DNA of 64,000 nt from an uncultured Eubacteriales bacterium (GCA_934501435.1 CAKSTW010000003.1:67842-131841), one strand, 5' to 3'; shown: positions 12,360-56,013, counted from the stretch's first letter. Notes: generated from the letters alone by a model not told the origin. Numbers and translations: made by a program.

Positions 12360-12836
12360 ATGGGAAAATGGAAATTGATTTGGTGCATAGCACGCTTCGG
12401 AGACGAGGAGGAGTTCGACACTTTTGAAGAGGCAAAATCTGTTTTCAGAAAAAAGATAAGTCGGGAAGTCAGTGACGAGTGGGAGGAGATTTTCGATTTC
12501 CTCGAAAAAGAGTTGGAAGAAGAAACAGACGGTGAGGAAATAATGAATTTTCTCAAAAAATTCGCCGACAACGAATTAGAAGAATCAGATGTTATTGAAA
12601 CGGAATATCACGGAAAATTCCATCTTACAATCAATGCTGACGGCATTGATATGGCCGAGGATGAGGATTACGGACAACAAGTATATCCGACAATTTCCTC
12701 TAACTTTATTTTTATGGACGATCCGAATATATTTTATCATTTCACATTTATTGATTACTATGATCCCGATTTGATGCCCGGGACGGAGTATAACGGTTAC
12801 GGATATTTCATTACTTTAAACAAAGTGACAGATTAA
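12360..12836 (+). CDS. hypothetical, strongly acidic protein
   Basis: 158 aa, with SD AAAGGGGAG upstream. Runs of D/E occur, for example DEEEFDTFEEA, EKELEEETDGEE and NELEESDVIETE. No motif recognised. It lies 26 nt upstream of the GmrSD-like gene. Confidence 0.7.
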   Translation: MGKWKLIWCIARFGDEEEFDTFEEAKSVFRKKISREVSDEWEEIFDFLEKELEEETDGEEIMNFLKKFADNELEESDVIETEYHGKFHLTINADGIDMAEDEDYGQQVYPTISSNFIFMDDPNIFYHFTFIDYYDPDLMPGTEYNGYGYFITLNKVTD

Positions 12837-12862: not shown

Positions 12863-14644
12863 ATGCCAGAGTATATGCCAACTAAACGCATCGCAGAAAT
12901 AATTGAACTGGTCGAAAAATCAGAATGGATTTTGCCGACTTTTCAAAGAAAATATGTGTGGGACCAAGAACAAATATGTGATTTGTTCGATTCCATCATG
13001 CGGAGCTATCCAATTAGTACATTTATGATTTGGAAAGTTAATAAAACCACAGCTGGCGAAAATAAATTTTACAAGTTTATTCAGGATTATCAGGAGTGGT
13101 GGCGTGAGATTGGAGAACCTTTTTTACCCAAAATAGACGACTATTATTACGCTGTAATTGATGGTCAACAGAGAATAAATTCCTTATATATTGGCTATCA
13201 TGGCAGTTACGCCGTAAGGCTTCCAGGAAAACGCAAGAAAAAAGCATATGATGAATCTATTCAGCCAAAAACTTATTTGTATCTTAATTTACTTGAAAAT
13301 GCAGACGAGAGCACTTCGAGATGTTACGATTTTAGATTCTTTTCTGATGTGGAGATGAATAATCAAGATAACAAGAAAAAGTGGTATCGTGTTGGAGATA
13401 TTCTTGACTATTCATACTTGGAAAATGATGATGTCGATGATAGTCTACCTAATCTTATTGATGAAAAGGAAATACTAAAAGATTTTACTGATGACGAAAG
13501 AAAAACTGCATTGAAAAAACTAAAAATGCTGTATAAAAAGACTTTTAACACACCAGTTATAAATTACTATCAAGAAGAAACTCAAAATCTTGAGCGTGTG
13601 GTGGACGTTTTCCTGCGTGCAAATGGTGGCGGTACGCCGTTGGAATTCTCCGATTTAGTAATGTCTGTCACAACTAGTCAGTGGCCAGAGTCAAGGGATA
13701 AAATTGAAGAACTGATAAAACTGATATACGCTGAAACCGGTATAACTCTTAATAAAGATTTTGTCTTGAAAGTTTTCCTTGTTCTATTTTCTGGAGATAT
13801 AAGTTTCAAAGTTAAAAATTTTGAAGATTCAACAACAGATTTAGTAAATAAGGCAAAAACGAATTTTGATAAGATTTATCAAGTAATACTCGGAACCTGT
13901 AAATTCGCAAATCAAATTGGATTAAACAATGAGACCTTGCGATCTAAATACGCATTGATTCCGATTATTTATTATTCCTATAAGAACGATTTCGAAATAG
14001 ACAACATTTCAAAAGGAAAAGATAACAAAAAACTGATTGAAGTGTGGATAAAATCCGCATTATTAAAAAGTATGTTTGGCGGTAAGCCAGATGCGGTATT
14101 GACAACTATTAAAAAGATTATTGATACCAATGCCGGCAATTTCCCAACCAAAGAGATTATTGCAGAGTATAAGAACAAGACCAAAGATATTTCGATAGAT
14201 AGAGATTTTATAGAAGATCGAATTGAGACATCTCACTATGGTTCTCCAGAGGCTTATCTGCTCTTGTCTCTTGCCATAAACCTTGATCCGCAGCAAAGAT
14301 ATAATGTTGACCATATGTATCCCAAAGATATGTTTAAGAAAACAGAGCTAAACAAATTGTCTTACTTATCAACAGATAAAGCCCTTTACGATTACTATGC
14401 AAACAAAGCAAACTGGAATACGGTCGGCAATCTGCAATTGCTTAATGACTCCGAAAACAAGTCAAAAAACAAAACCAAATTGTCGGAATGGACAAGAGGA
14501 ACGACTACATACACGTGGTCTGACTATTTTATTCCCAAGGATGATTCTGGAAATTATATTGTGCAGGATGATAAGTTTAAAGAATTCGTTGAACTGAGAA
14601 AGAAACTCCTCGCTGATGCGATAATGAATACACTTACAGTTTAA
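12863..14644 (+). CDS. GmrSD-like type IV restriction enzyme (DUF262 + DUF1524/HNH-like)
   Basis: N-terminus: ILPTFQRKYVWDQEQICDLFDSIMRSYPISTF and VIDGQQRINSLYIG (DUF262, DGQQR motif). C-terminus: VDHMYPK...GNLQLLNDSENKSKNK (DUF1524 His-Me finger). Confidence 0.85.
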   Translation: MPEYMPTKRIAEIIELVEKSEWILPTFQRKYVWDQEQICDLFDSIMRSYPISTFMIWKVNKTTAGENKFYKFIQDYQEWWREIGEPFLPKIDDYYYAVIDGQQRINSLYIGYHGSYAVRLPGKRKKKAYDESIQPKTYLYLNLLENADESTSRCYDFRFFSDVEMNNQDNKKKWYRVGDILDYSYLENDDVDDSLPNLIDEKEILKDFTDDERKTALKKLKMLYKKTFNTPVINYYQEETQNLERVVDVFLRANGGGTPLEFSDLVMSVTTSQWPESRDKIEELIKLIYAETGITLNKDFVLKVFLVLFSGDISFKVKNFEDSTTDLVNKAKTNFDKIYQVILGTCKFANQIGLNNETLRSKYALIPIIYYSYKNDFEIDNISKGKDNKKLIEVWIKSALLKSMFGGKPDAVLTTIKKIIDTNAGNFPTKEIIAEYKNKTKDISIDRDFIEDRIETSHYGSPEAYLLLSLAINLDPQQRYNVDHMYPKDMFKKTELNKLSYLSTDKALYDYYANKANWNTVGNLQLLNDSENKSKNKTKLSEWTRGTTTYTWSDYFIPKDDSGNYIVQDDKFKEFVELRKKLLADAIMNTLTV

Positions 14645-34713: not shown

Positions 34714-35019
34714 TTGTTTTTCTTCCCCTTTTTGACAGTTTATAATGCCTGAAACAAAGGTGGGCAAGCTGCTGTTGTCCGGTGCAGGCTCTTAAGATTA
34801 TTTCTCTCTTTTTGCCTTGAAAGGTATCCGCCCGTATGCGGAAAAAAGAATTTCCGGAGCATTTCTCGGTGCCGTGTGTCGGAGTTTTCACGGACTGTTT
34901 TTCGGCATAACGATAAAGAAACCGCAGAAAATACCGACGTATTTGCAAAATTTCCGCAAAAGTCGGGACAACCTGTCCGTCAAAACTGATAAGGATTCGT
35001 TTCTTCTCCGCCTGCCCGA

Positions 35020-35047
35020 AAACTATGATATAATTATATCATAGTTT
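35020..35047. repeat. perfect 28-bp palindrome
   Basis: AAACTATGATATAA|TTATATCATAGTTT, with 14-bp arms, no spacer and no mismatch. It lies in the 470-bp gap at the left edge of the accessory island. Confidence 0.9.
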
Positions 35048-35184
35048 CCGACAGATTTCAATCCACCCGTAAGAAAAAGGAAGAAAGAACCTCCGCAAAG
35101 CAGGTTTTTCCGGAATCGCCGCTCTGCTCTTCGGTTCTTAACTTTCAGTAAGTTCAAACTGTAACATTGAAAAGCAGCCCGTTT

Positions 35185-36324
35185 TTATTCCTTCCCGCGC
35201 TTTTTACCGCCCGCATTTTCGCTCGCCTTGAAATTATATATCGGCTTGATGATTTTCTCGACGATTACGGTTTCTTTTATGTTATTCATTATTTCTTCCA
35301 TCGGTTTATACACCATGGGACATTCATCGATTGTATCTCTTGCGACAGAAGTGGTAAAAATGCCTTCCATTGATTTCTCGAACGCGCTCAAAGTAAAGGA
35401 ATCAAAAGCATCTTTTCGGCTCATCAATCTTCCTGCGCCGTGAGGAGCGCTGCAATTCCAGTCTTCATTTCCGAGTCCCGTGCAGATAAGGCTCCCGTCA
35501 CGCATGTTCATGGGAATCAGGAGACGCTCATCTTTTTTTGCCGACACGGCACCTTTGCGGAGGATCATCGTATTAACATCAACATAGTTGTGGATTGTTG
35601 TAAAGCTGTCATCTTCCGTTAATTTCATACCGTCGAGAATCACTTCTTTGATTACCGTCCGGTTCAGATCGGCGAAAGCCTGCATAAACTCCATGTCATG
35701 TAAATAGTCCTGCATTTCATCACCGCTGAGATATGCAAGTTCATACGGAATCTCGGTCTGATTTTTGCCGCCGCAGGCATTGTAAGCCTTTTTCTGATAG
35801 TATTCCGCAACACGCAATCCGAGATTTCGACTTCCCGTATGTATTACCAAATATAAGTTGTCCTCATGATCTTTATCTATCTCGATAAAGTGGTTGCCTC
35901 CGCCAAGAGTCCCGATGCTTTCCTTGGCGCGACGTATATCAACCTTTCCGACGCAGCGCAGGTCATAAATATCAAGGCGGCCGTGACTTCTGTGGCTTCT
36001 TTCCCGAACTTCTCTGCCATACGGAATATTTTGACGGATGAAACTGTCAAGTTTAGGCAGATCGACCCTTTTTTCTTTCAGTTTTACTGTCAGCATTCCG
36101 CATCCGATATCTACTCCGACGATGTTGGGAACGATTTTATCTTTAACTGTCATGGTTGTCCCGATAGTACAACCTTTTCCCGCGTGCACATCCGGCATAA
36201 TCCGGATTTTGGATTCAGCAGAATAAGGCTGATTACAGAATGTCCTGATCAATCCCTCGGCAGAGGCCTCAAGGGTGTCCGTAAATATTTTCGCTGTCCC
36301 GTATTGTCCTTTAATTTCTATCAT
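35185..36324 (-). CDS. rtcB: RtcB family RNA 3'-phosphate ligase
   Basis: MPDVHAGKGCTIG, GGGNHFIE, HTGSRNLG and SAPHGAGR (nucleophilic His region). 379 aa. Confidence 0.9.
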   Translation of the reverse strand: MIEIKGQYGTAKIFTDTLEASAEGLIRTFCNQPYSAESKIRIMPDVHAGKGCTIGTTMTVKDKIVPNIVGVDIGCGMLTVKLKEKRVDLPKLDSFIRQNIPYGREVRERSHRSHGRLDIYDLRCVGKVDIRRAKESIGTLGGGNHFIEIDKDHEDNLYLVIHTGSRNLGLRVAEYYQKKAYNACGGKNQTEIPYELAYLSGDEMQDYLHDMEFMQAFADLNRTVIKEVILDGMKLTEDDSFTTIHNYVDVNTMILRKGAVSAKKDERLLIPMNMRDGSLICTGLGNEDWNCSAPHGAGRLMSRKDAFDSFTLSAFEKSMEGIFTTSVARDTIDECPMVYKPMEEIMNNIKETVIVEKIIKPIYNFKASENAGGKKRGKE

Positions 36325-36385
36325 TTGTTTTCTCCGTTTCTATATATTACGTCGCGGACGGTCTTTGAAAGACGCAAAGAGCGCA

Positions 36386-36928
36386 TCATACGATTATTGT
36401 CTCCCTGAAACATGCGTTGTTGATTTGCATCTGTTCAAAAGTCACAGGTTCAAAACCGTTGATGTCTGCTCCGGCGTTCAGCAGACGCGGATTGTTTTTA
36501 ATAACCGACCGGTAAGGCAGGGGTATGTTATTGTGAATATGTCCGTGAACCATATAACTTTTCAGTTCGTGCTTCCAGCACATCAAAGGATAATGACAAA
36601 GCACGAGACTGTGTTTGCCGTCCGAAACCTCTATGAAATGGTCAACCGAAAGAAAATAGCGTGAAGCGTCCAACCTTTTTAACCAACCGCCGTCATGGTT
36701 CCCGACAACGAGCCTTTTCCTGCCTTTAAGCTGCTTTAGAATTTTTTCGGGATCTTTATGTTTGTAAAACAGGTCCCCGACTATATACACGGTATCATTC
36801 CCGGATACCCTTTCGTTCCACCGCTCAATCATAAAGCTGTCCATTTCCTTGACGCTTTTGAAAGGGCGGCGGCATAAATCGATAACGGCTCCGTGTCCGA
36901 AATGTGTGTCCGCTATAAAGAAAAGCAT
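36386..36928 (-). CDS. calcineurin-like metallophosphoesterase
   Basis: FIADTHFGH (DxH), IVGDLF (GD), VVGNHDG (GNHD), GHIH. 180 aa. Confidence 0.8.
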   Translation of the reverse strand: MLFFIADTHFGHGAVIDLCRRPFKSVKEMDSFMIERWNERVSGNDTVYIVGDLFYKHKDPEKILKQLKGRKRLVVGNHDGGWLKRLDASRYFLSVDHFIEVSDGKHSLVLCHYPLMCWKHELKSYMVHGHIHNNIPLPYRSVIKNNPRLLNAGADINGFEPVTFEQMQINNACFRETIIV

Positions 36929-36947
36929 GATTCGATCTCCGTTAATT

Positions 36948-38255
36948 TCATTTTGTTTTATTCCAATACCGGTCGATCTCCCGCTGCATATTCTCGCGTC
37001 CGACAGGGTTCATTGTATGCAGTTTAACAGGATAATGGGTTTTTCTTTCGGCAAGCCAGTCAATCAGTTTGATTCCGTCACCGCCGTCGGAAGCGTAATC
37101 TCCCAGATCATGGTCGCAGTTGATTTCATCAATAACGGCATATTCTTTTTCACACTCGATTATCTTTTTTATTGCCTCATTGACACTGCGGCAGTGACAG
37201 TATCCTTCCGGCGCTTTTCTGACATCGTCAAGCCATATTTTAATATGCTCCGGCTTGGATAATCCCGCCAGGATCATACCTGACTTCAAATAATCAAGAG
37301 GAATACTGTTTTCCGCATACCCGGCAGTGATTATCTGATGATAAGCGCGGGCGAAAAGTGCCGGATCTATTTCATCTTTCAGGAAATTACCGAGAGCAAT
37401 CAGAGTTCTTTTTGAACCGGTCAGTTCCTTATCATAGAATTCAAGATCCATATAGTTTGCCATACACTCTCCGTAAATACTGCCGTCCTCTCTTAAGAAA
37501 AATCCTCCGGCACACATGTCGGAAAAGTCGCCGTTTTTTCTGAGATTGTCTTTCAACTTATCGTTTTCGATACCGTCAAGGCAAACTCCTGTCGTCACAA
37601 ACGGACCGGCACAGATTCCATCCGGTTTATTCGGATCCCATACTATATCGCCCTTTTTAAACGGTGTCGGAAAGTCAAACCAAAGACCGTCGAAAACACC
37701 GAAAAACAAATCTTCTTCATTACTGTCAACGGGTCCGGGGTAAATGCGCAGAAAATCAAAGGAAGGGGTCAGATACGCAATTTGCCGCGAATCCAATCCA
37801 TCTATCTGCATTTTGGTGCATTGAATGGAGATAACGTCGTCTTCCGGCTCCATAATGCTTTCATATAAAGCATCAAAGCATGAAAATACCGTATCCCATT
37901 CGTATTCGGAACCGTCTTTGTAAATGTATTTGAATTTGTAAACAAACGGCTTGTCATCGTCAGAAGTGTCGGCAGGTTTCTCATCACGGAACTTGTCAAT
38001 ATACTTACTTTCAATCTCCATATACTGCTTCAGAAAAGCGTGAAGACTATCCTGCGGGACAGTGTTCAATCGTTCCGCTATCCGGCAATCCGGCATCTTT
38101 TCAATCAGTTCGTTCCACGCTTTATGCTTTTCGTCAACAGTCGCGCCGCGGCACTGATAGATAAGCCATGCAGCCTCAAGAGAATTAAATTCATAACCGA
38201 TATTTCCGAGGTATTCTCTTATATCTTCGGAATTGACAAATCTTAATATATCCAT
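36948..38255 (-). CDS. protein with a C-terminal cyclic-phosphate-processing receiver-like (CPR) domain; the N-terminal ~330 aa are unknown
   Basis: The track ORF starts at GTG 38264. ATG 38255 lies 8 nt after SD GAGGAG. The C-terminus IKIWLDDVRKAPEGY...INCDHDLGDYASDGGDGIKLIDWL...VKLHTMNPVGRENM matches my recollection of the CPR/receiver-like domain described in RtcB-centred RNA repair systems. Confidence 0.7.
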   Translation of the reverse strand: MDILRFVNSEDIREYLGNIGYEFNSLEAAWLIYQCRGATVDEKHKAWNELIEKMPDCRIAERLNTVPQDSLHAFLKQYMEIESKYIDKFRDEKPADTSDDDKPFVYKFKYIYKDGSEYEWDTVFSCFDALYESIMEPEDDVISIQCTKMQIDGLDSRQIAYLTPSFDFLRIYPGPVDSNEEDLFFGVFDGLWFDFPTPFKKGDIVWDPNKPDGICAGPFVTTGVCLDGIENDKLKDNLRKNGDFSDMCAGGFFLREDGSIYGECMANYMDLEFYDKELTGSKRTLIALGNFLKDEIDPALFARAYHQIITAGYAENSIPLDYLKSGMILAGLSKPEHIKIWLDDVRKAPEGYCHCRSVNEAIKKIIECEKEYAVIDEINCDHDLGDYASDGGDGIKLIDWLAERKTHYPVKLHTMNPVGRENMQREIDRYWNKTK

Positions 38256-38315
38256 ACGTTTCACTCCTCATATATTTATTTTTCAGGTCTGTTTCTCTAT
38301 ATATAATACAACAAT

Positions 38316-38339
38316 ATATGCACCGAAAGCGGTACATAT
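38316..38339. promoter_or_regulatory. operator-like inverted repeat (island motif, site 1)
   Basis: ATATGCACC-GAAAGC-GGTACATAT, about 60-85 nt upstream of the CPR/MPP/RtcB operon start. It overlaps a putative -35. Confidence 0.6.
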
Positions 38340-38390
38340 CGACCGATAGAATAAAGACATCGGGCAAGAGATACAAAGTTTGTATTCGAC

Positions 38391-38420
38391 TTTACAAAAC
38401 ACATTGAATTATGGTATAAT
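38391..38420 (+). promoter_or_regulatory. sigmaA-type promoter P1
   Basis: TTTACA (38391-38396), 18 nt spacer, TGgTATAAT (-10 at 38415-38420). Confidence 0.5.
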
Positions 38421-38426
38421 AGCCAC

Positions 38427-38532
38427 AGAAAGTCTTGCTACCGCAAGCCTTCGCGGCTGTCGCCTCCCCGTGCTCACGCACGGCTGCGGTATTGACGGCC
38501 TCGCAAAAATGCCCTTGCAGGCAAGCATTTTT
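38427..38532 (+). ncRNA. candidate structured small RNA or cis-regulatory leader
   Basis: A GC-rich segment lies between P1 and a terminator-like hairpin. Long-range stem UACCGCA(A)GCC / GGCUGCGGUA spans 38439-38491. An inner hairpin is CCGUGC-UCAC-GCACGG. The 3' hairpin is AAAAAUGC..CUUGCAGGCAAGCAUUUUU (38505-38532). A second TGgTATAAT follows at 38539-38547. Confidence 0.35.
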
Positions 38533-38575
38533 GCATCGTGGTATAATATATAAAATCGGGAAAGGATAAAGAGAC

Positions 38576-38779
38576 ATGGACGAATTGAAGGATAATCAAA
38601 ATGTCGAAACAAAAGAATTGGTCAGGCAGTATCTAAAGAAAAAATATCACGATGATCAATTTTCAGATGCGGATTTGAAATTTCTTGCAAGGTTTTCTGT
38701 AAAAAAGGAACCCAAAGAAAGCGAAATAATGAAAAGCCTTGGCCTCATCAGCGACAAGGGAAGGGTGCAAGACTATTGA
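38576..38779 (+). CDS. hypothetical 67-aa ORF, possibly the frameshifted N-terminus of the HNH gene
   Basis: SD GGGAAAGGA lies upstream of ATG 38576. The ORF overlaps the next ORF by 41 nt in another frame, near the run AAGGGAAGGG. Confidence 0.4.
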   Translation: MDELKDNQNVETKELVRQYLKKKYHDDQFSDADLKFLARFSVKKEPKESEIMKSLGLISDKGRVQDY

Positions 38780-39206
38780 AGCCGTTAAAAAGGCAAAGGA
38801 TTGTATCCAAAAAATCTATGAGCGCTTTAGCACCAAAAGAAATAGCCAAACGAAAAAGGAAAAACCCGTAAATGTTTTTGACGATGACTTCGAAACTTTT
38901 TTGGCTTGGTGGTGCGAAAAAACGCCTGAGGACGGAATACGGCATTGTTGTTATTGCGGGATTGATGAAAACACGCTAAAAAATGCTTTTGAAAATGGGG
39001 TAGTTATCTCTAAAAAACCATCTTTCAGCGGAGAATTACAGATTGAGCGTAAGGATCCCAACGGGGATTACTGCCATGATAACTGTGAGTTTGCCTGCGT
39101 GATCTGCAACAACGCAAAAAGCGATATGATCTCTGCGGAGGACTTCACAACATACTTTATTCTGGGTATTAAAGAATACTGGGAACATATCAATGGAAAA
39201 TTATAG
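38739..39206 (+). CDS. HNH endonuclease domain protein
   Basis: CCYCGIDENTL...ELQIERKDPNGDYCHDNCEFACVICNNAKSD is a Cys-box HNH. The track start is a TTG with no SD, so the real N-terminus is unclear. Confidence 0.6.
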   Translation: MASSATREGCKTIEAVKKAKDCIQKIYERFSTKRNSQTKKEKPVNVFDDDFETFLAWWCEKTPEDGIRHCCYCGIDENTLKNAFENGVVISKKPSFSGELQIERKDPNGDYCHDNCEFACVICNNAKSDMISAEDFTTYFILGIKEYWEHINGKL

Positions 39207-39263
39207 TGCTTGCGGTGAAAATCTCATTATTCTTTTAACGCAAGGCACAAGGAGGCCTTTTCT

Positions 39264-40775
39264 ATGATTTACTTGTCAAAATCAAAATATTGCGGACTTT
39301 GGCAATGCCCCAAAATTGCATGGATGAAAAAATACAAACCGGAAGAACTGCGGCTGGACGAAAGCGTCGTTTCCCGCATGGAAGCCGGCAACGAGGTCGG
39401 CGATCTGGCTATGGGGCTTTTCGGAGACTATGTTGAGGTGACAGCGTATAACAACGAAAAACCTGACCTTTCCAAAATGATTGAAACCACAAAAGCGGAA
39501 ATGCAAAAAGGCACGCCGGTCATCTGCGAGGCTTCTTTTGAGTATAACGGGCTCTATTGCGCTGTGGACATCCTAAAAAAGGAGGGGAACGGCTGGTCAA
39601 TTTATGAGGTCAAAAGTTCCGCAAAACACGAAGATAAAAAGGATGATAAGCCGGTATACATTGCGGATGTCGCTTATCAGAAATATGTGCTGGAAAACTG
39701 CGGCATAAAACTCACCGGGACATATCTTGTCTGCCTGAACGGAGATTATATATTTGACGGAGTCCTTGACATCAATCGTTTATTCACTGTTTCTGACATA
39801 TCAGAAGCCGTATCTGTTGAAGAAAAAAATATTTCTGCAAATCTGTCTGTTGCCGAAAAATTGCTTAACTCTTCCGATGAGCCGGATATAGATATATCAG
39901 CAAATTGCAAAAAGCCGTACCTTTGCGGATTTTGGGATTATTGCGCAAAAAACATCCCAAAACAATCGGTATTCAACTTGTATAAAATGAGGTTCAGCAG
40001 AAAGATAAAGTTCTATAAAAAAGGGATTATTACATACCGGGAATTGTTGAACAGCCCCGAAATCACCAACGAAAAACATCTTCGACAGATCGAGTTCTCA
40101 TTGCAGGATAAAGGAACCTATATCGAAAAAGAAAATATCCGTAAATTTCTTTCAACTCTCTCTTATCCGCTCTACTTTCTCGATTTTGAAACAATTCAGC
40201 CTGTCATTCCGAAATATGCAGGAACAAAACCTTATGCGCAAATACCGTTTCAGTATTCGCTGCACTGTATCGAAACAGAGGGCGGAGAGTTAAAACACAA
40301 AGAATTTCTCGCAGAATCCGGTACCGATCCGAGAAGAAAACTCGCCGAACAGCTTTGCTCGGACATTCCCATGAACGTCTGCGTTACGGTTTACAACAAA
40401 GCCTTTGAGTGCACCCGGCTTAAAGAATTGGCGGAGACATTCCCGGATTTGGCGAAGCATCTTCTCAATATACGAAAGAACATCGTCGACCTGCTTGTTC
40501 CGTTTCAATCGGGCTATTACTACAATCGGGCAATGGGCGGGTCATTTTCCATTAAAAGCGTTCTGCCTGCCATTTTCCCGGACGATCCCGAATTGAACTA
40601 TCACAACCTTGAAGGTGTGCATAACGGCGGAGAGGCAATGACGATTTTTCCGAAAATACAGTTCATGACGCCGGAGGAACAAAAGAAAGCGCGGCGCGAT
40701 CTGTTAAAGTATTGCGAACTTGATACCTATGCTATGGTTAAAGTCTGGGAAGAACTTATTCGCGCAGCAGAATAA
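39264..40775 (+). CDS. DUF2779 family protein (Cas4/RecB-like PD-(D/E)xK nuclease + DnaQ-like exonuclease region)
   Basis: MIYLSKSKYCGLWQCPKIAWMKKY; EASF...VDIL...WSIYEVKSS (D..EVK nuclease core); Cys cluster CKKPYLCGFWDYC; YPLYFLDFETIQPVIPKYAGTKPYAQIPFQYSLH. Confidence 0.8.
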   Translation: MIYLSKSKYCGLWQCPKIAWMKKYKPEELRLDESVVSRMEAGNEVGDLAMGLFGDYVEVTAYNNEKPDLSKMIETTKAEMQKGTPVICEASFEYNGLYCAVDILKKEGNGWSIYEVKSSAKHEDKKDDKPVYIADVAYQKYVLENCGIKLTGTYLVCLNGDYIFDGVLDINRLFTVSDISEAVSVEEKNISANLSVAEKLLNSSDEPDIDISANCKKPYLCGFWDYCAKNIPKQSVFNLYKMRFSRKIKFYKKGIITYRELLNSPEITNEKHLRQIEFSLQDKGTYIEKENIRKFLSTLSYPLYFLDFETIQPVIPKYAGTKPYAQIPFQYSLHCIETEGGELKHKEFLAESGTDPRRKLAEQLCSDIPMNVCVTVYNKAFECTRLKELAETFPDLAKHLLNIRKNIVDLLVPFQSGYYYNRAMGGSFSIKSVLPAIFPDDPELNYHNLEGVHNGGEAMTIFPKIQFMTPEEQKKARRDLLKYCELDTYAMVKVWEELIRAAE

Positions 40776-42409: not shown

Positions 42410-43351
42410 TCACGCATCGGTCGTTTTACCGCAAAGTTTTTCTTTGATCCGGGTTTTATACCCGATAAACTCCGAATTATTCGGGTCAACAGAAAGCACA
42501 TAGTTTATCCGTCCCAGCAGTTTCCTCAAATAAACAGTCTCGTTATCCGTATTTCCTTTCTTTTCAAGATGACTCCTGATTCCGTATTTTTTACAATAGT
42601 ACATCTCCTGTCGGACATTCTTTCTGTACGATGCTGCCACATTCGGTTTTTGATTGACAACGATCCCGGTAACAGACATTTTTTGTCCATTACATACACA
42701 AACCGTCTTTTTTTCATTTAAGAAAAAACCGAGTTTTCCGAGTTCGCCTGATACAAAACATTTCAAAACCGACGGTTCAAAGACCCCCGAAAAAGTCATA
42801 TCGTCACAGTAGCGTGTATAGGTTATTCCTCTTTCACGGCACCAACTGCCGACAGTATTATCAAAATCCCGCATAATGATATTGGATATTGCCGGAGATG
42901 ACGGTGCGCCCTGCGGCAGACAGCCTTTATAACAGCACAAGACAGACAGCAGAACCCCGTTCGACTCGGAAAAAATTCTGTCATTGAAAACAATATTTCT
43001 GACAAGCGCATAGGTAATTTTATCAAAGAAATGCCGGATATCAAGTTTCAGCAACATCGCGTGTCCTGCATGCGGCTTTGCATTTTTCAAAGGGCTGCCG
43101 CCGAATCGGTATGCGGTTGCATACGGAGAAAGTTCGATTCGGTTCAGAATGACATTCGTAATTTTCTTTTGCACCGCTTTAAGCTCTTCATCCGGAACAA
43201 ACAGTTTGCGGTATTCGCCGTTTCCTTTGGGAACAGACGTTTCATGATAATGCGAATTGATTGTATTGCTGAGAGTGTACAACATTTTTGCCGAGCATCC
43301 GAGATCGGTTTCGAGGGAGGAATGCTCCCGATAGATAATCATATTTGGCAA
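42410..43351 (-). CDS. retron-type reverse transcriptase
   Basis: 313 aa. LKNAKPHAGH (NAxxH); LLKLDIRHFFDKI (motif A); LPQGAPSSPAISN (motif B); YCDDMTFSG (motif C); MSVTGIVVNQKPNV (retron VTG motif). SD GAGGGAGG. A structured non-coding region lies immediately upstream. Confidence 0.9.
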   Translation of the reverse strand: MPNMIIYREHSSLETDLGCSAKMLYTLSNTINSHYHETSVPKGNGEYRKLFVPDEELKAVQKKITNVILNRIELSPYATAYRFGGSPLKNAKPHAGHAMLLKLDIRHFFDKITYALVRNIVFNDRIFSESNGVLLSVLCCYKGCLPQGAPSSPAISNIIMRDFDNTVGSWCRERGITYTRYCDDMTFSGVFEPSVLKCFVSGELGKLGFFLNEKKTVCVCNGQKMSVTGIVVNQKPNVAASYRKNVRQEMYYCKKYGIRSHLEKKGNTDNETVYLRKLLGRINYVLSVDPNNSEFIGYKTRIKEKLCGKTTDA

Positions 43352-43656: not shown

Positions 43657-44895
43657 TCAACTGAATTTCGGATAATTATGCTGCATTATATTGATGTCGT
43701 GTTCAAAAATTTTCACTCGGGTGTCCGGCGCACAGACCTCCCCGATACGCAATATGTCCAGAACGGAATTCATATAAACCGATTCGTATTCCTGCGATAC
43801 ATCGGGTGAAAATCTCTTGACAATAAATCCGGCGGTAAGTTCGTTCGGCTCACTCATCGACTTATATGTTTCGTAAAACGACGGAAGCGAAAGAAACACT
43901 CCCATCAGTTCGGTTTGAAAAGATGAAGTTTCTTTTTCGGGATTTTTCAAACGCTCAACCGTATAAACAGTTCCCCGCTTTTCGCTTTTGAACTTTGCAA
44001 GAAACTCGTCTTCTGCGGCAATCATTTCCGAAAGCAAGGCGTGGACTCCCGCGATGCCTTCAGACAGAAAGCCCGTGGCGTCAACTGAAGTGTCGGGAAT
44101 ATCGGCGATTATATTTTTCAACTCCGCATGCTTTTCTTCAAGAGTCAGCCAACTGCAATTATGCACAATCACCGCCGCCTCGCCGGAGTCGAACTCATAG
44201 CGTTCATCGTCCAGGCGCTTGCGCACGCCGTCATTTTCAATCAAACGCAGCGTATTTTTTCTGATTCTTTCGGATTTATCGTCGATCCCGTTTATCAACT
44301 CTTTTTCCTTGATTCGGGAAAACAGGGCGTATTCATAAGAAAACTCTTCGAACAGCGTTTTTCTGCGGGGAAACGCTGCCGCAAGGGCAAACTCATGAAG
44401 CGTTTGCGAAAAACACGACAAATTCTCATTTTTCTTTGATTTGGAATAACTCTTGTAATCGCCGCTGTAAACAAGGTCGGTAAAAAACAGAGCCTTCTCC
44501 TTTTCACAGCCTGTCGAAATAAGGAATTCGTAAAAATCTTCCCCATACCATATATCAGCGCCGAGAAAAGCCCGTACCTGCCTGTTTACGCAACCGACCC
44601 CTTTTTGTTTCGCGTAGCGGACGTATGCCTCTGCGGCGGTTAACGGCTTCTTTATTGCTTCTTTAAGCGTTCTTACCCTTGCATCATAAAGGTCAAACTT
44701 ATGAAACAGCGTCCATACCGGACGGTGCAATACCGTACAATTCTCCTTGCCTCTCAGATATTCCAGAAACTCCAGACATTCTTTTTTTGTCGGAGCCTCT
44801 GCCGGGTCGAATGGTTTTTGGCGGCAAGAAAACGGATCCTCTTTATAAAAAGTGATATTTCCGTTTTCTCTGACACAGTAACAGCTTACTGACAT
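43657..44895 (-). CDS. hypothetical protein (412 aa)
   Basis: Track ORF 43657..44940, trimmed to ATG 44895 (MSVSCYCVRENG), 6 nt after SD GGAGGGGG. No motif recognised. Confidence 0.65.
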   Translation of the reverse strand: MSVSCYCVRENGNITFYKEDPFSCRQKPFDPAEAPTKKECLEFLEYLRGKENCTVLHRPVWTLFHKFDLYDARVRTLKEAIKKPLTAAEAYVRYAKQKGVGCVNRQVRAFLGADIWYGEDFYEFLISTGCEKEKALFFTDLVYSGDYKSYSKSKKNENLSCFSQTLHEFALAAAFPRRKTLFEEFSYEYALFSRIKEKELINGIDDKSERIRKNTLRLIENDGVRKRLDDERYEFDSGEAAVIVHNCSWLTLEEKHAELKNIIADIPDTSVDATGFLSEGIAGVHALLSEMIAAEDEFLAKFKSEKRGTVYTVERLKNPEKETSSFQTELMGVFLSLPSFYETYKSMSEPNELTAGFIVKRFSPDVSQEYESVYMNSVLDILRIGEVCAPDTRVKIFEHDINIMQHNYPKFS

Positions 44896-45045
44896 TTTTA
44901 TCCCCCTCCGTGTTTTTTCGGTTTCGGTAACCGCCCGCATTGATAATACTTTGGCTCATTATATTCCGGCAGGCGCCGAGAAACGAACTTTTATCGCCCG
45001 TCACAGACCCTTTCCGGTGATTTCCCTTTTTAAACATCTGAAAAT

Positions 45046-50203: not shown

Positions 50204-51205
50204 CTATTTGACATTTTTATTCTCATTATATTTCTTCAGTCCGCTATCCAAGATTTCTTTCATTCGATTTCTTAAGGATTCCGGTGAAACTATCTCCACA
50301 TGGTTTATGTACTGCATTGCCCAAAGTTCCATGGCGGTTGGGCTTGCTTTAACACCGACTCTGACTTTTCCTTCTTCGTTTGATTTCATGATGCGAATGT
50401 CCTTTCCGAACCAGTCGACAATTTGATCAACTATCCCCTCGTCGGCAATAAAATCAATGTATTCGGGTTTATCAGAATACATATACGGCATCGTTGAAGA
50501 TAATTCTTTATAATTGATGCCGTTTTCATAACCCGGCACGTTTTTAAGCGGAGTTGCTTTTCGGGCTGTGATTGTCATATTGCTGATACGGTCAAGTCGG
50601 TGAAATACAATATTGTGCCAGTATTCACTGTATGCCATCAAATAATAGCGTTGATTGTGCAAAATCATCAAATACGGGCTGACATATTGCTGCGAAGTCT
50701 TGTGCAGTTTTTTATCAACTCCGTATTTATTGTAATCGTAATGTATCTGTTTCCCTTCTTCTATGGCGGCATCAATTAACTCAATATTATAGAACAACGC
50801 CTGATTGTCTGTTTTGCTCCAGTCGTTCACCGAGTGGATATGTTTAACGCTTGACCTGAAATACTTGTTCGACAGAGCGCAAATACGATCAATCAGATCC
50901 TGCGAGTGGCGGGCTGTAATGTGCTTACTGCTCAACACGCCGTCAATCAGCATATGGAGTTCCGAATCTTCAAAATCGCGGCTGTCCAAATAGCTGCCGG
51001 ATCTTCGGGATTCGATTTCTATCCCGGATTCTTTTAACAAAGAAATATTACGGCTGATTGCTTTTCTTTCAATGACTATCCCGTATTCATTTTCCAGCTT
51101 TCGTGCAATATCCTCCTGCGTCATGGGATGGTCATAGTCACTGTTTTCTTTGAGTATTTGCCAAATCCTTATCAATGCAAGTTTTTTCGGTTCAAAGCTC
51201 TCCAT
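50204..51205 (-). CDS. WYL-domain transcriptional regulator (wHTH-WYL-WCX architecture; BrxR/CapW-like)
   Basis: N-terminal wHTH (LIRIWQILKENSDYDHPMTQEDIARKL). WYL core (SPYLMILHNQRYYLMAYSEYWHNIVFHRLDRISNMTI). C-terminal extension. SD AAGGAG. Confidence 0.8.
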   Translation of the reverse strand: MESFEPKKLALIRIWQILKENSDYDHPMTQEDIARKLENEYGIVIERKAISRNISLLKESGIEIESRRSGSYLDSRDFEDSELHMLIDGVLSSKHITARHSQDLIDRICALSNKYFRSSVKHIHSVNDWSKTDNQALFYNIELIDAAIEEGKQIHYDYNKYGVDKKLHKTSQQYVSPYLMILHNQRYYLMAYSEYWHNIVFHRLDRISNMTITARKATPLKNVPGYENGINYKELSSTMPYMYSDKPEYIDFIADEGIVDQIVDWFGKDIRIMKSNEEGKVRVGVKASPTAMELWAMQYINHVEIVSPESLRNRMKEILDSGLKKYNENKNVK

Positions 51206-51802
51206 ATTATAGCTCCTTGTCGTTTTCCGTATGTTAAAAACATAATCTTAAACAGATTATACCGTACCATAAAAGTCACGCCCGTTTTTGGTACATTTCA
51301 TTCTTTTATTTGCCCGCAATAATATTTATATCAACAAACACGCGGAAGGTCACCTTGATTACCGGGTCCGCATTTTATTTCTTTCCGGTCTTTTTAGGTT
51401 TTCCATTGTTCCGTAACGGTTGCCGAAGCTTTAACTTTGGCAACAAACCGATTACAATCACCTTTTACTTTATTATACTCATTTTTGAAATACGAGTCAA
51501 GACCTTAAAATTCAGGCTTTATCAAATTCACCGTAATACGACGCAGAGGAAATATCTTTTATCTTCCGGTTTCAGGATATCCGCAACTGTAAAAAGCCCT
51601 TTGCGAAAAGGATTTCTCCTCTCGCAAAGGGAAAGCTGACGAGTAAAATTTTACAGTACGGTTTTTCACAATAAAATGATACCGGAAGCAATGTACCGGT
51701 TTTGATGCCCCGCCGTTCAATTTCAATCGGTTCAAAGTTTTCTCTGCCATACCTGTCAAACATACAACGCCGCTCACATTTGTGTCTCTTCAGATCCTGA
51801 CT

Positions 51803-53785
51803 TTATTCTTCTTCGGCTACCGCGCTCTCGGATAGCATCTTTGCGAAATGTCCTTCGGTAATAATCTTCGTTCCATAGTTCAATGCAGTTGAAAGTTTTT
51901 TTGTTCCCGGCGCTTCACCGACGATCAGATAGGTTGTATTTTTCGTCACGGAATCATTTACATTTGCTCCGAGGAGTTTCAAAAGTTCGGTGATATCCTT
52001 GCGGTTCATACCGTTCACGGTACCGGTCACCACAACATTGGCATTCACAAACGGATTACCCTCTTCCCCGATTTTAACGGGCTGGTCAATAAAGGTAATT
52101 TCTTTCAAAACAGGTTTCCACAGTTTTGCTTCCGTCTCATCAGCGTACCATTTATAAATATTTCTGCTTAATGTTTGGGAAACGCCGGCAATATGAAAGA
52201 AACAAAACTCCTCTTTGATTGCTTTCTCGAAATCGTCCCACGATCCGAGAAAATATTCGTCAATCGCTCTGGCATTATTGGGTCCCATAAGCGGAATGCC
52301 GACTGCAACCAGAAACTGCGCCAGATGGCATCGTCTGCTGTTCTCAACGGCTGATATTAGTTTATCATAAGTCCCATAGCCAAATCCGGGCGTTGTCAAA
52401 ATCCTCTCGCGGTACTTTTCCAGATCATACAGATCCGCAAAGGTTTTTACAAATCCGTATGCCATCAACTTTTCGAGAACAGAGGCATTGAAGCCTTCCA
52501 TATTCATTGCATTTTTATCGCAGAATCTTGCGATTTTCTGAGCGTTTCTGGCAATACATTCTTCATTGGGACAATATAGGTTTTTTGTACCGCCGGAAGC
52601 GATCTTAAGTTCAAGTTCACTTCCGCAGCAGGGGCATCTGTCGGGAAGTTTATATGTCCCGCTCCGGGTAACGTTTTCCGAAATCTGAGGGACAATCATA
52701 TTGGCTTTATATACTTTAATTGTGTCGCCGATTCCGAATTCATACTTCTCAAAATTACTGAGAGAATGAATATCTGCCCGCTTAACATAAGAACCGTCAA
52801 TCAACACCGGATCGAATTCGGCGCAAAGAGTTATCATTCCGTTTCTTGTTGTAGCAAGTTCCACTCCACGGAAGACCGTCTCGTATTCGTCATCCTCCCA
52901 CTTAAGGGCAAGCATTCTGTTCTCATGGTGCGCAGTGGCTCCGAGGCTTTTGCCGAATGAAAGATCATTATATTCAAAAATGAGCCCGTCAACAGGATAA
53001 TCGTATTTTTCGGGATTAAAACTTTCAATGGTTTTTTTAAGCGCCGTCTCTCCGGAAAACGCATGAATAAGTGTATGTTCAACTACATCAAAGCCGTTTG
53101 CCGAGAGAAAGTCCAACTGTTCCTCTTTCGTAGTTCCGCCATCACCGGGAAGGATCAGTTCAAATGCGTAGAAATCCATATGAGAAAGGTTTCCCTTGTC
53201 GGGGGTCAGGCTTCTCACAAGCCCGGCGGCAACGTTTCGAGGGTGACTCGGTGAATTATCTCTGTTGAGCAGTTGATAATCTGCCCATGAAACAACTCCT
53301 TCACCCCGAACCTCAAAACTCTTTCTGCAATTCACTTTTTTCGGTATGTTACGGAGATATCTGACCGTATTGGTAATATCCTCGCCCACAAGCCCCTCTT
53401 CGCCTCTGGTAACGGCTTGCTTAAAGTTCCCGTCCTCATATCTCAGTACAAGAGTAAGTCCGTCCATTTTCCAGGATAACATAACATCGTTTCCGGCAGC
53501 AAAGTGAGCGACATCATCAACTGACTTTGTTTTCTTAGCCGAAAGCATAGGTCTGGAATGCTCAACTTTTTTCAGTTCGGTCTTATTACAGCCGCCGACC
53601 CGCTTTGTCGGAGAGTTTGCAAATACAATACCGGTGACGGCTTCCAATGTTTTCAGTTCATCCATTAAGGCATCGTACTCCCTGTCCGTCATGACAGGAT
53701 TGTCTTCGCCGTAATATGCTTTATCGGCGTCCTTAATAATTGAAATCAGTTCTTTAATTCTTGAAACATTATTTTTTTCCTCCAT
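51803..53785 (-). CDS. ligA: NAD-dependent DNA ligase (LigA family), divergent island-borne copy
   Basis: Domain Ia YYGEDNPVMTDREYDALMDEL; adenylation lysine SWKMDGLT; TRGEEGLVGEDIT; Zn finger CPCCGSEL...YCPNEEC; HhH region; C-terminal BRCT (VVVTGTVNGMNRKDITELL...YLIVGEAPGTKK). Confidence 0.85.
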   Translation of the reverse strand: MEEKNNVSRIKELISIIKDADKAYYGEDNPVMTDREYDALMDELKTLEAVTGIVFANSPTKRVGGCNKTELKKVEHSRPMLSAKKTKSVDDVAHFAAGNDVMLSWKMDGLTLVLRYEDGNFKQAVTRGEEGLVGEDITNTVRYLRNIPKKVNCRKSFEVRGEGVVSWADYQLLNRDNSPSHPRNVAAGLVRSLTPDKGNLSHMDFYAFELILPGDGGTTKEEQLDFLSANGFDVVEHTLIHAFSGETALKKTIESFNPEKYDYPVDGLIFEYNDLSFGKSLGATAHHENRMLALKWEDDEYETVFRGVELATTRNGMITLCAEFDPVLIDGSYVKRADIHSLSNFEKYEFGIGDTIKVYKANMIVPQISENVTRSGTYKLPDRCPCCGSELELKIASGGTKNLYCPNEECIARNAQKIARFCDKNAMNMEGFNASVLEKLMAYGFVKTFADLYDLEKYRERILTTPGFGYGTYDKLISAVENSRRCHLAQFLVAVGIPLMGPNNARAIDEYFLGSWDDFEKAIKEEFCFFHIAGVSQTLSRNIYKWYADETEAKLWKPVLKEITFIDQPVKIGEEGNPFVNANVVVTGTVNGMNRKDITELLKLLGANVNDSVTKNTTYLIVGEAPGTKKLSTALNYGTKIITEGHFAKMLSESAVAEEE

Positions 53786-54486: not shown

Positions 54487-56013
54487 TTACTCATCGACTT
54501 TTATTCTGCCGATCTTTCCCCACGGCGGATTTCTGTCTTCGTTATTGATTAACCAAAGGACAGGGATACCTCCCGCCTCACTTTCGGCAGGAAACTCGTC
54601 GTAGCCATCTGTAATTATGATGATATATGCCGGCGGCTCATCTGTCATGTTTTCGTTCATATAGCGGAAAATAGCAGAAAAGTCATTTCCACCGCCGCCG
54701 ACCGGCTTAATTTCCATGACATCCTCAACTGACGAGAACGGTATTGGCACCGTAACGTAACTTTCCGTAAAACTTAACCAGCCCTCCAGTTTCCCGTTAA
54801 ATTGATCAATTGCAGCACATATCTCGCTGTAAGCAGCACGGATAGCATTGTCCCCGATAGATCCTGAGGTATCTATCAGAAACCATATATTTTTGACACC
54901 GGACTCTTTTTCATTAAAGTCGGGTAAAAGAAACATACTGTCCTGAAAGCGCCTGTCCGGTGGATTAAAAGAATAATCGTTTATTTCTTCCTGAACAAAA
55001 TCCTGTAAAACTTCTCTCCAGTCGGTTTGCGGTTCTGTTAATTCCATGAGAATTCTTTGAGCCATCAAAGGTGGTCCGCCATAACCTTCATGACTATCTT
55101 TGATACTGATTATTCTGTTTGCGATTGTAGTAGCTTCAATCATTCTCTGAAGCCAGATATCTTTTGAATATCCATCATCTGTTTCGCTCTTATTATATGC
55201 GCTGCAATGGTTTGATTCATATTCTTCTCCATATTCATTACAGCTTTGCCCCGGTGACCCCGTATCACCCATACCCCAGTAGGTGTGATCATCAAAGCCG
55301 CCGTCAAAACGCGCGGGACCGGTGCCGCCTTCACCGCTGCCGCCTTCATCACTGTCGCCATCACCACTGCCGCCTTCATCATTGCCGCCTTCATCACTGT
55401 CGCCATCACCACTGCCGCCTTCATCACTGTCTCCTTCACCACTGCCGCCTTCATCACTGTCGCCTTCATCACTGTCTCCTTCACCACCGCCGCCTTCATC
55501 ACTGCCGCCTTCATCATTGCCGCTGTTCATGGGATTATTTTTCTTTTTTTCAGTCTCATTACAACTATGAACTAGTTTGTATACTTCTTCTGCCGAATAC
55601 TCGTAACCTTCCTTTCCGTCAGGAGCAATATGCATGCTCTCACCGTAATTTTTTAAAGTGATTTTCGAGAGATCCATATCAAAGGAATACAGAATATTGG
55701 AATTAACCACTATGTCACAAGCTGTATTAAAATCATCGAAGTCATAAGAATCCGATTTTCTGTTGCAATGGTTCAGCGCGGCATGGAGTACTTCATGCAT
55801 AAGAACAAATTCAAGTTCTTCATCCGATAGGGAATCTATAAAATCCGGACAGAAAACGATCCGGCTCCCGTCTGTGTAGGCAGTCTCGCACATAGGGTCA
55901 AGTGAGAATTGCATATGAAGAAGAAGTACCGCATAGAACGGCTGCTTTCTCATCAAAGAAAGCCGAGACGCCTGCAGTCTCTTTACAATTTTCAATACTT
56001 CTTTACTGAACAT
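54487..56013 (-). CDS. HExxH metallopeptidase-like domain + acidic repeat linker + vWA (MIDAS) domain protein (DUF2201-like)
   Basis: N-terminus [12 protein letters not shown]...[16 protein letters not shown] (HExxH). Central (G/S/D/E) repeats. C-terminal v[13 protein letters not shown] (MIDAS DxSxS) ...IIIITDGYD. Overlaps the MoxR gene by 11 nt. Confidence 0.8.
55321..55525. repeat. imperfect tandem repeat (units of about 15-30 nt) inside the vWA gene
   Basis: Repeating ACTGCCGCCTTCATCACTGTCGCCATCACC-like units encode [10 protein letters not shown]-type acidic repeats on the minus strand. Confidence 0.9.

Follow-up and report, generated by a model that had tools for sequence, protein, structure and literature searches.

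What do a cyclic-phosphate-processing domain, a metallophosphoesterase and an RNA ligase do when their genes lie side by side on a bacterial chromosome? Such a cassette occupies positions 35185-38264 of a 64,000-nt stretch of DNA from an uncultured Eubacteriales bacterium (GCA_934501435.1 CAKSTW010000003.1:67842-131841), which we call the window and whose first letter is position 1. A first-pass annotation of the window had taken the three genes for a module that processes and religates RNA ends. We believe, with confidence that is about evenly balanced, that the cassette is a mosaic cargo operon, in which a self-sufficient phage-type RtcB ligase is combined with a separately inherited unit, made of an N-domain/cREC protein and a metallophosphoesterase.

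Three proteins and their active sites

The interval is filled by three open reading frames (ORFs) of the minus strand, in agreement with the three co-oriented genes that had been placed at 35185-38340. The first, geneA (36948-38255/38264), probably starts at the ATG at 38255, 8 nt past a GAGGAG Shine-Dalgarno sequence, and thus encodes a protein of 435 amino acids (aa), which consists of an orphan N-domain (aa 1-335) and a C-terminal cREC domain. It is followed by MPP180 (36386-36928, minus strand), a binuclear metallophosphoesterase of 180 aa and of the aq_1665/phrog_547 type, and by a short, phage-type RtcB RNA ligase of 379 aa (35185-36324, minus strand). The gaps between the genes are 19 nt (geneA-MPP180) and 61 nt (MPP180-RtcB), there is a GGAG ribosome-binding site at each, and no minus-strand terminator was called between the three genes; for these reasons they are probably co-transcribed as a single operon. 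None of the three proteins has a database name attached, and PADLOC finds no defence-system match for any of them. For all three, the best scores are to phage families, with PHROGs models beating general models by far. An Rfam scan of the 33-46 kb region gives nothing at E<=0.1, and there are no tRNA genes in the window.

The C-terminal domain of geneA (aa 341-431; 36963-37235, minus strand) is a cyclic-phosphate processing receiver-like domain (CPR, or cREC), as the first-pass annotation had proposed. A profile search matches it to the Pfam family cREC_REC (PF20274; E 1.7e-20, 74 bits against a cut-off of 27, model positions 1-87 of 88) and to phrog_1479 (E 2e-16). At the level of fold, its matches in BFVD are phage proteins of about 100 aa, two of them named cREC, with template-modelling scores of up to 0.79. 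The motifs WLDD (341-344), CDHDLG (380-385) and HTMNP (413-417) are present, with the key residues D343, D344, D381, D383 and T414; WLDD, CDHD and HTMN are near-invariant across the aligned cREC-bearing homologues of geneA. Pfam annotation of the cassette and its immediate neighbours shows no histidine kinase. The domain was defined by Iyer and co-workers, who predicted for it a role in resolving the cyclic phosphates of RNA ends or of ADP-ribose derivatives, and described it in operons with RNA ligases, occasionally also with calcineurin-like phosphoesterases, and in association with WYL sensors (PMC7824862, PMC9503650). It has been called 'experimentally uncharacterized' (PMC9503650), and no later experimental work on it was found in the literature searched.

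A phage origin of the whole cassette was considered and rejected. In a tblastn comparison of geneA with 50,697 phage records the cREC part alone is matched, the N-domain is present in recognised viral contigs at a single IMG/VR locus, and a plasmid search matched RtcB alone. At one locus with a geneA relative (L024), a 505-aa ORF at roughly 10-12 kb contains a separate cREC between regions that, as judged by eye, are SLOG/YpsA-like and Toprim/primase-like, an architecture that differs from the geneA fusion.

The N-terminal part of geneA (37251-38255, minus strand) had been described as about 330 residues devoid of a recognisable motif, and so it appears to profile searches as well: these ~335 aa have no match in any of four hidden Markov model libraries (Pfam, NCBIfam, PHROGs and PADLOC). 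An AlphaFold2 model of geneA, built from 24 homologues (mean predicted local distance difference test score, pLDDT, 87; predicted template-modelling score, pTM, 0.78), consists of a helical head (aa 1-90), a beta-rich, variable middle (~90-187), a conserved lobe of mixed alpha/beta structure, and the cREC domain, in that order. When the model is compared with PDB structures by Foldseek, nothing is found at E<0.001, apart from weak receiver-domain matches to the C-terminus alone that fall short of this threshold; in BFVD, all significant matches are to the cREC part and none to the N-domain.

This orphan domain defines a large family. None of the 495 geneA homologues bears a name, and an exhaustive profile search collects 2,077 clusters at 50% identity (668 at E<=1e-30), almost all of which are stand-alone proteins of 330-345 aa. 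Among 21 longer members, there are four fusions to cREC, two to FtsK/SpoIIIE, one to Bac_DnaA and one to DnaB_C. Over 119 diverse members, with a median identity of 36% to the window protein, conserved positions group in two lobes and residues ~90-187 vary. In the head, the conserved residues are N8, S9, D11, E27, E42, K43, D56 and H72. In the C-terminal lobe, they are P196-x-P198-F199-x-x-G202-D203, D243, D246, Y268, E272 and K293, with the motifs PxPFxxGD, DxxDM and YxxxE. Such a pattern is compatible with an enzyme or with a conserved binding surface.

Pieces of the N-domain are also found in other contexts. In the window itself, a 427-aa protein (43657-44940, minus strand) contains a region, aa 229-399, that is a homologue of aa 2-171 of geneA, which span its head and middle (26% identity, E 5e-14 by BLASTP; both proteins fall in the same blastp cluster); its gene sits just upstream of the retron non-coding RNA and reverse transcriptase (RT) region. 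A 543-aa protein at locus L049 joins the N-terminal extension of this 427-aa protein to a full N-domain, from which we conclude that N-domain pieces undergo shuffling. A further family of ~355 aa, cluster c6, often adjoins geneA relatives (L013, L014, L018, L019, L022, L023, L085); it has no Pfam match, and by eye resembles a remote N-domain paralogue, with a like pattern of helices at the N-terminus and PFRTGDIV in the place of PFKKGDIV.

MPP180 belongs to the Metallophos family (PF00149; E 3e-7, 31.5 bits against a cut-off of 21.5) and to phrog_547 (E 6.4e-44), so that the calcineurin-type phosphoesterase of the first-pass annotation stands. All five motifs of the binuclear centre are intact: D7xH9, G51-D52, G76-N77-H78-D79, H112 and G128-H129-x-H131. 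The likeness to the phosphatase module of Pnkp, drawn in the same place, holds at the level of the superfamily and goes no further. The closest solved relative of MPP180 is aq_1665 of Aquifex aeolicus (PDB 1XM7, E 4.5e-11), the rest of the superfamily is at E of at least 0.69, and the lambda phosphatase 1G5B and 4J6O, which we take to be the phosphatase domain of CthPnkp, are not matched even at E<=10. By these comparisons, MPP180 is placed outside the Pnkp-type/lambda-phosphatase clade. A different protein of about 227 aa, MPP227, which is found in relatives of the cassette and is absent from the window, does match 1G5B (E 2.8e-8) and 4J6O (E 1.5e-5). The protein aq_1665 resembles MPP180 in size and motifs; it is a structural-genomics metallophosphoesterase with no assigned function, and gives no clue to the substrate of MPP180. 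Relatives of MPP180 are frequent in phages (1,410 records). That MPP180 and RtcB form a phage pair was considered and rejected, as the partner gene was missing beside each of the genes inspected, namely the MPP180 relatives of Eggerthella and Streptomyces phages and the RtcB of phage Grass.

RtcB matches PF01139 over nearly the whole model (E 2.7e-66, 225 bits against a cut-off of 27, positions 13-423 of 426), as well as phrog_1075 (E 3.7e-138); its counterparts in Bacillus phages and in phage contigs from human faeces share 47-53% identity with it. NCBIfam PRK09588 gives 131 bits only, with a cut-off of 407, indicating a phage subtype. In the alignment with RtcB of P. horikoshii we find VDIGCG (D72, C75), GNHF (H145), HTGSR (H162) and PHGAGR (H296), which we take, from the P. 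horikoshii enzyme, to include the metal-binding residues and the histidine that becomes guanylylated; H245 (IHNY) is assigned by motif alone. The catalytic residues are all retained as far as alignment and motif can tell, in line with the intact metal- and GMP-binding histidines reported earlier.

Separate histories of the parts

If these three proteins made up one pathway, their genes might be expected to travel together. For geneA relatives we took one genome per species, which gave 73 loci in other species, almost all of them gut or rumen Firmicutes, and counted neighbours within 5 kb of the N-domain gene; many of these loci are short contigs, and the counts are lower bounds. The commonest neighbour is the lambda-phosphatase-like MPP227 (24 of 73 loci), which lies directly upstream of the N-domain gene with a 5-nt gap in L081, L084 and L089, and next comes cREC, fused or separate (19). 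DUF2779 is found at ten loci, a PAD-like gene at nine, RtcB at six and MPP180 at five, and neither the retron RT nor the MPG-like gene at any. Not one of the 73 loci has cREC, a metallophosphoesterase and RtcB together. The nearest analogue is looser, with MPP227, a stand-alone N-domain and RtcB (L035 and L041). From the side of RtcB, we examined 160 loci (80 viral and 80 metagenomic) with relatives at 45-70% identity, within a radius of 6 kb: neither cREC nor the N-domain is found near any of them, and a metallophosphoesterase of any kind near two. The three genes are thus not conserved together, contrary to what an RNA-repair module would lead one to expect. The published associations of cREC are with RNA ligases, sometimes joined by calcineurin-like enzymes (PMC7824862, PMC9503650).

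Nucleotide comparison shows how the cassette was put together. The window is collinear with L008, L009 and L011 over the divergent DUF2779-HNH-orf67 genes (40775-38521) and the promoter region (38421-38280), and with these three loci and L081 over geneA and MPP180 (38280-36403). Between the promoter region and geneA the relatives have an extra ~680 bp, which is the MPP227 gene that the window lacks. Homology to the relatives ends at 36403, within the 3' end of MPP180; downstream of it, the relatives carry a gene for a 188-aa protein (cluster c10) and the window carries RtcB. The order MPP227-geneA-MPP180-c10 of the close relatives is, accordingly, geneA-MPP180-RtcB in the window. The DNA of the RtcB segment matches L035 and L041 only, at 70-75% nucleotide identity. 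The RtcB proteins of L035, L040 and L041 are 74-81% identical to that of the window, and the adjacent N-domain proteins are only 40-43% identical to geneA, which indicates that RtcB was exchanged independently. All other occurrences of the identical geneA protein share the arrangement of the window. Synteny and this contrast in identity, taken together, make the three-gene form a recent mosaic, found in only this species among those sampled.

In the mosaic operon so assembled, geneA and MPP180 would represent a version of an island module widespread in gut Firmicutes, in which a metallophosphoesterase accompanies an N-domain protein and to which a minority of lineages adds cREC, as a fusion or as a neighbour. 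This unit would hydrolyse phosphoester or cyclic-phosphate groups on RNA ends or on nucleotide-derived molecules, with 2',3'-cyclic phosphate, ADP-ribose cyclic phosphate and cyclic oligonucleotides as candidate substrates, and the N-domain would recognise the substrate or contribute another catalytic step. The second unit, RtcB, would be self-sufficient by the established chemistry of such ligases, in which 2',3'-cyclic phosphate is converted to 3'-phosphate and joined to 5'-OH with GTP and Mn2+, and it may reseal tRNA or rRNA that has been cut by metal-independent ribonuclease toxins or by defence effectors. The two units would have in common the theme of RNA- or nucleotide-centred conflict and a probable transcript, with no obligate pathway of healing and sealing. 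In this scheme we infer the substrates, the direction of benefit and the co-transcription; what the domains are, that their active sites are intact, how the genes are spaced, their mosaic origin and the co-occurrence counts are shown directly.

Could the three enzymes act cooperatively on the same RNA, with cREC opening 2',3'-cyclic phosphates, the metallophosphoesterase trimming 2'- or 3'-phosphates, and RtcB sealing the ends? All three domains are intact and tightly spaced, cREC has been predicted to act on cyclic phosphates by resolving them and, in phages, is associated with RNA ligases, sometimes along with calcineurin-like enzymes, and the combination of a metallophosphoesterase, an N-domain and RtcB recurs in L035 and L041. 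The chemistry, however, is hard to reconcile with such a pathway. RtcB performs its own Mn2+-dependent cyclic-phosphodiesterase step, has a strict need for 3'-phosphate and does not seal 2'-phosphate ends, and has been described as 'a stand-alone catalytic unit', whereas the metallophosphoesterase of CthPnkp strips the phosphate to leave 3'-OH (PMC3592404); a Pnkp-like phosphatase would therefore remove, not prepare, the substrate of RtcB. A version compatible with the chemistry is one in which the phosphoesterases clear 2'-phosphate ends that RtcB cannot seal. The placement of MPP180 outside the Pnkp/lambda clade, the lack of a kinase, RtcA or ATP-dependent ligase among the cassette and flanking genes, the zero counts of the trio in both censuses, and the recent replacement of the c10 gene by RtcB all speak against cooperation, and we think it quite improbable. 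What stands of the earlier proposal is the RNA or nucleotide phosphoester theme, which is reasonable; the cooperative three-enzyme pathway is unsupported.

The opposite view is that the genes are unrelated cargo with no common substrate: the N-domain would serve the DNA biology of mobile elements (replication, transfer or anti-restriction), MPP180 would be a generic phage phosphoesterase, and RtcB a passenger. The fusions to FtsK/SpoIIIE (2), Bac_DnaA (1) and DnaB_C (1) among the 21 long members would fit this view, as would the recurrence of DnaB/PolIII-alpha, of S24 and ImmA-type repressors and of sigma factors among the neighbours, the highly variable gene order around the N-domain family, and phage relatives of MPP180 that do not adjoin RtcB. 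Yet the commonest partners of the N-domain are phosphoesterases, either a metallophosphoesterase of any kind (24 of 73 loci), often at a gap of 5 nt, or cREC (19 of 73), often fused, which argues for a role in phosphoester chemistry, and some of the N-domain fusions may be products of gene-calling read-through. On balance we consider unrelated cargo unlikely.

Several points weigh against the mosaic-cargo operon as we picture it. The neighbour counts, as said, are minimal ones. RtcB lies near the N-domain gene at 6 of 73 loci, which is above what we would informally expect of unlinked genes, and in L035, L040 and L041 it immediately follows, on the downstream side, an N-domain gene that stands alone; the N-domain and RtcB may therefore be truly linked in function. 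The fusions to FtsK/SpoIIIE, DnaA-type and DnaB-type ATPases hint at DNA or mobile-element biology and not at RNA. Finally, no mobility gene was identified inside the island that carries the cassette in the window.

Promoters and the surrounding island

The cassette is separated from its divergent neighbours by an intergenic region (38256-38575) with promoters, a hairpin and a palindrome; it is between this region and geneA that relatives have the MPP227 gene. Two extended -10 promoters on the plus strand (38412-38420 and 38539-38547) serve orf67-HNH-DUF2779. For the cassette itself there is a weak promoter candidate on the minus strand (38342-38313), with at best 9 of 12 matching positions and a hairpin at 38339-38316. 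The palindrome ATACAAAGTTTGTAT (38371-38385) is unique in the window and conserved within the same species only.

The cassette had been thought to share an operator with the rest of the island, and this idea did not survive inspection. The sole motif common to the region upstream of the cassette and to the retron promoter is TGGTATAAT, which is an extended -10 promoter consensus. It is found four times in the window, with 0.28 expected, always in intergenic regions of the island and with unrelated flanks, and another 53 times in ~1.15 Mb of loci L001-L094; both copies beside the cassette are on the plus strand and point at orf67-HNH-DUF2779, away from the cassette. The palindrome ATACAAANTTTGTAT and the 26-nt core of the longer palindrome described below were likewise rejected as shared operators, each being unique in the window and conserved in the same species only.

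A near-perfect palindrome of 34 nt (35017-35050; perfect 26-nt core 35021-35046) marks the junction of the island and the host chromosome downstream of RtcB. Its sequence (CGAAAACTATGATATAA/TTATATCATAGTTTCCG) lies in the 420-nt spacer between RtcB and an Acyl_transf_3 gene and overlaps a near-consensus promoter of the minus strand (TTGAAA-17-TATAAT with TG). It has no second copy in the window, and its conservation is confined to the same species. It is probably outside the cassette proper, and could be the operator of the downstream cell-envelope operon or a recombination site.

The divergent operon (38576-40775, plus strand) encodes orf67, a 155-aa HNH/endonuclease VII-like protein with weak PHROGs matches, and a 503-aa DUF2779 protein with a Cas4-like N-terminus; its two tandem TGGTATAAT promoters are predicted to drive expression. 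This operon adjoins geneA in L008-L011 as well, and L037 and L084 retain a part of it.

The cassette is at the left end of a genomic island of ~26 kb (about 35.1 to 61.1 kb), flanked on the left by Acyl_transf_3, LicD and other cell-envelope genes and on the right by lysyl-tRNA synthetase. The island carries a retron RT, MPG-like and PAD-like genes, an AAA-lid_6 ATPase, a WYL-WCX regulator, an NAD-dependent DNA ligase, DUF2201-VWA and MoxR-like AAA genes and a 1315-aa SNF2 helicase, and some of this backbone is found again in L081 and L089. The earlier placement of the cassette beside a retron is correct as to position, the RT (42410-43351; PADLOC RT_Ec107-like, E 1e-125, and just under the cut-off of the NCBIfam St85 family) being 4 kb away; the link is not conserved in any of the 73 other species. 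After the RT, in the segment 40966-43351 (minus strand), come the genes for a 183-aa protein with an MPG-like glycosylase fold and for a PAD_porph-like protein of 265 aa. The latter gene usually comes after a ~240-aa gene (cluster c9) where it occurs near geneA relatives, and never with RT, so that it may belong to the island backbone and not be a retron effector.

The WYL-WCX regulator (333 aa) and the NAD-dependent DNA ligase, a paralogue of 660 aa that has adenylation, OB and BRCT domains, are encoded at 50204-53785 (minus strand), and both agree with the NAD/cyclic-nucleotide theme with which cREC is associated in the literature. They bring up one more explanation, in which geneA and MPP180 would act in counter-defence, destroying the messengers of CBASS, Pycsar, Thoeris or type III CRISPR systems (cyclic oligonucleotides or cADPR-type molecules) on behalf of the island, and RtcB would mend RNA cleaved collaterally by the effector RNases. 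The definers of cREC posit processing of cADPr or of 2',3'-cyclic nucleotides and note its association with WYL sensors; besides the two genes of the island, WYL genes (cluster c1) recur near the N-domain family, and all three cassette proteins are closest to phage proteins. Neither PADLOC nor other comparisons, however, match them to known anti-defence families, the N-domain family is nearly absent from recognised viral contigs, and no signalling system was identified nearby. This explanation draws on context alone, and we see little likelihood in it.

Two further features of the window concern the cassette less directly. A 15-nt tandem repeat in 13 copies (55278-55553) lies within the DUF2201/VWA metallopeptidase-like gene (54487-56013) and is predicted to encode an acidic, low-complexity linker rich in Gly, Ser, Asp and Glu. 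Between 12000 and 15000 the GC content falls to 0.33-0.36, compared with ~0.47 in the flanks, and this segment, with ORFs at 12360-12836 and 12863-14644, may be a second, unrelated insertion.

Known systems and the meaning of the cassette

The closest published counterparts of the cassette are the RNA-repair and NAD/ADP-ribose neighbourhoods of phage cREC (Iyer, Burroughs, Anantharaman and Aravind; Viruses 2021, PMC7824862, and 2022, PMC9503650), in which, as here, an RNA ligase and a calcineurin-like phosphoesterase are encoded along with cREC in a mobile or conflict setting, a likeness to which the WYL regulator of the island may be added. In those neighbourhoods cREC is mainly stand-alone or fused to Nudix, and accompanied by T4-like ATP-grasp ligases, sirtuin or KptA, a kinase, and 2H or HAD enzymes (PMC7824862, PMC9503650). 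In the window, by contrast, cREC is joined to the 335-aa N-domain, RtcB takes the part of the ligase, and kinase, sirtuin, KptA and Nudix are all missing; the element is not a phage but an island in the chromosome of a gut Firmicute. RtcB of phages (phrog_1075; Bacillus phages Grass, P59 and Bcp1) shares with the window protein its full-length similarity, the ~380-aa form and the catalytic residues; in phages and in the 160 related loci it has neither cREC nor N-domain for a neighbour, with a metallophosphoesterase nearby in two cases, whereas in the window it closes an operon of three genes carried by a chromosomal island.

The heal-and-seal systems Pnkp/Hen1 and T4 Pnkp/Rnl are similar in that a metallophosphoesterase is found beside an RNA ligase, and in the idea of repair of RNA cut by ribotoxins. 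They differ in having a 5'-kinase, an ATP-dependent ligase and Hen1, none of which is present among the cassette and flanking genes, and RtcB uses the very 3'-phosphate that Pnkp removes (PMC3592404). With rtcBA of E. coli, controlled by RtcR, the cassette shares an RtcB ligase for stress-related RNA repair; it differs in that neither the RtcA cyclase nor RtcR with its CARF and sigma-54 domains is found among the Pfam-annotated neighbours, and in the phage subtype of its RtcB. What is new here is the fusion of cREC to an orphan N-domain, RtcB as the ligase, and the location on a chromosomal island; that cREC is linked with RNA ligases was known before.

As an RNA-repair system, the cassette adds little, since RtcB is well understood and links between cREC and ligases are on record. 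It illustrates how cargo slots of islands recombine RNA-repair and phosphoesterase genes. The main interest that remains is in the large orphan family of the N-domain and in its tight pairing with metallophosphoesterases. It is conceivable, though doubtful at present, that this family is a new kind of enzyme or sensor with an unrecognised fold, and that with its tightly coupled metallophosphoesterase (and, in some lineages, cREC and RtcB) it forms a system not described before, which gut Firmicutes carry on mobile islands and which processes damaged RNA ends or nucleotide immune signals. If the operon does act on phosphoesters of RNA or nucleotides, it would be a compact and tractable place for testing the still-predicted activity of cREC, and would open a route to the function of an orphan family that is common in Firmicutes of the human and animal gut.

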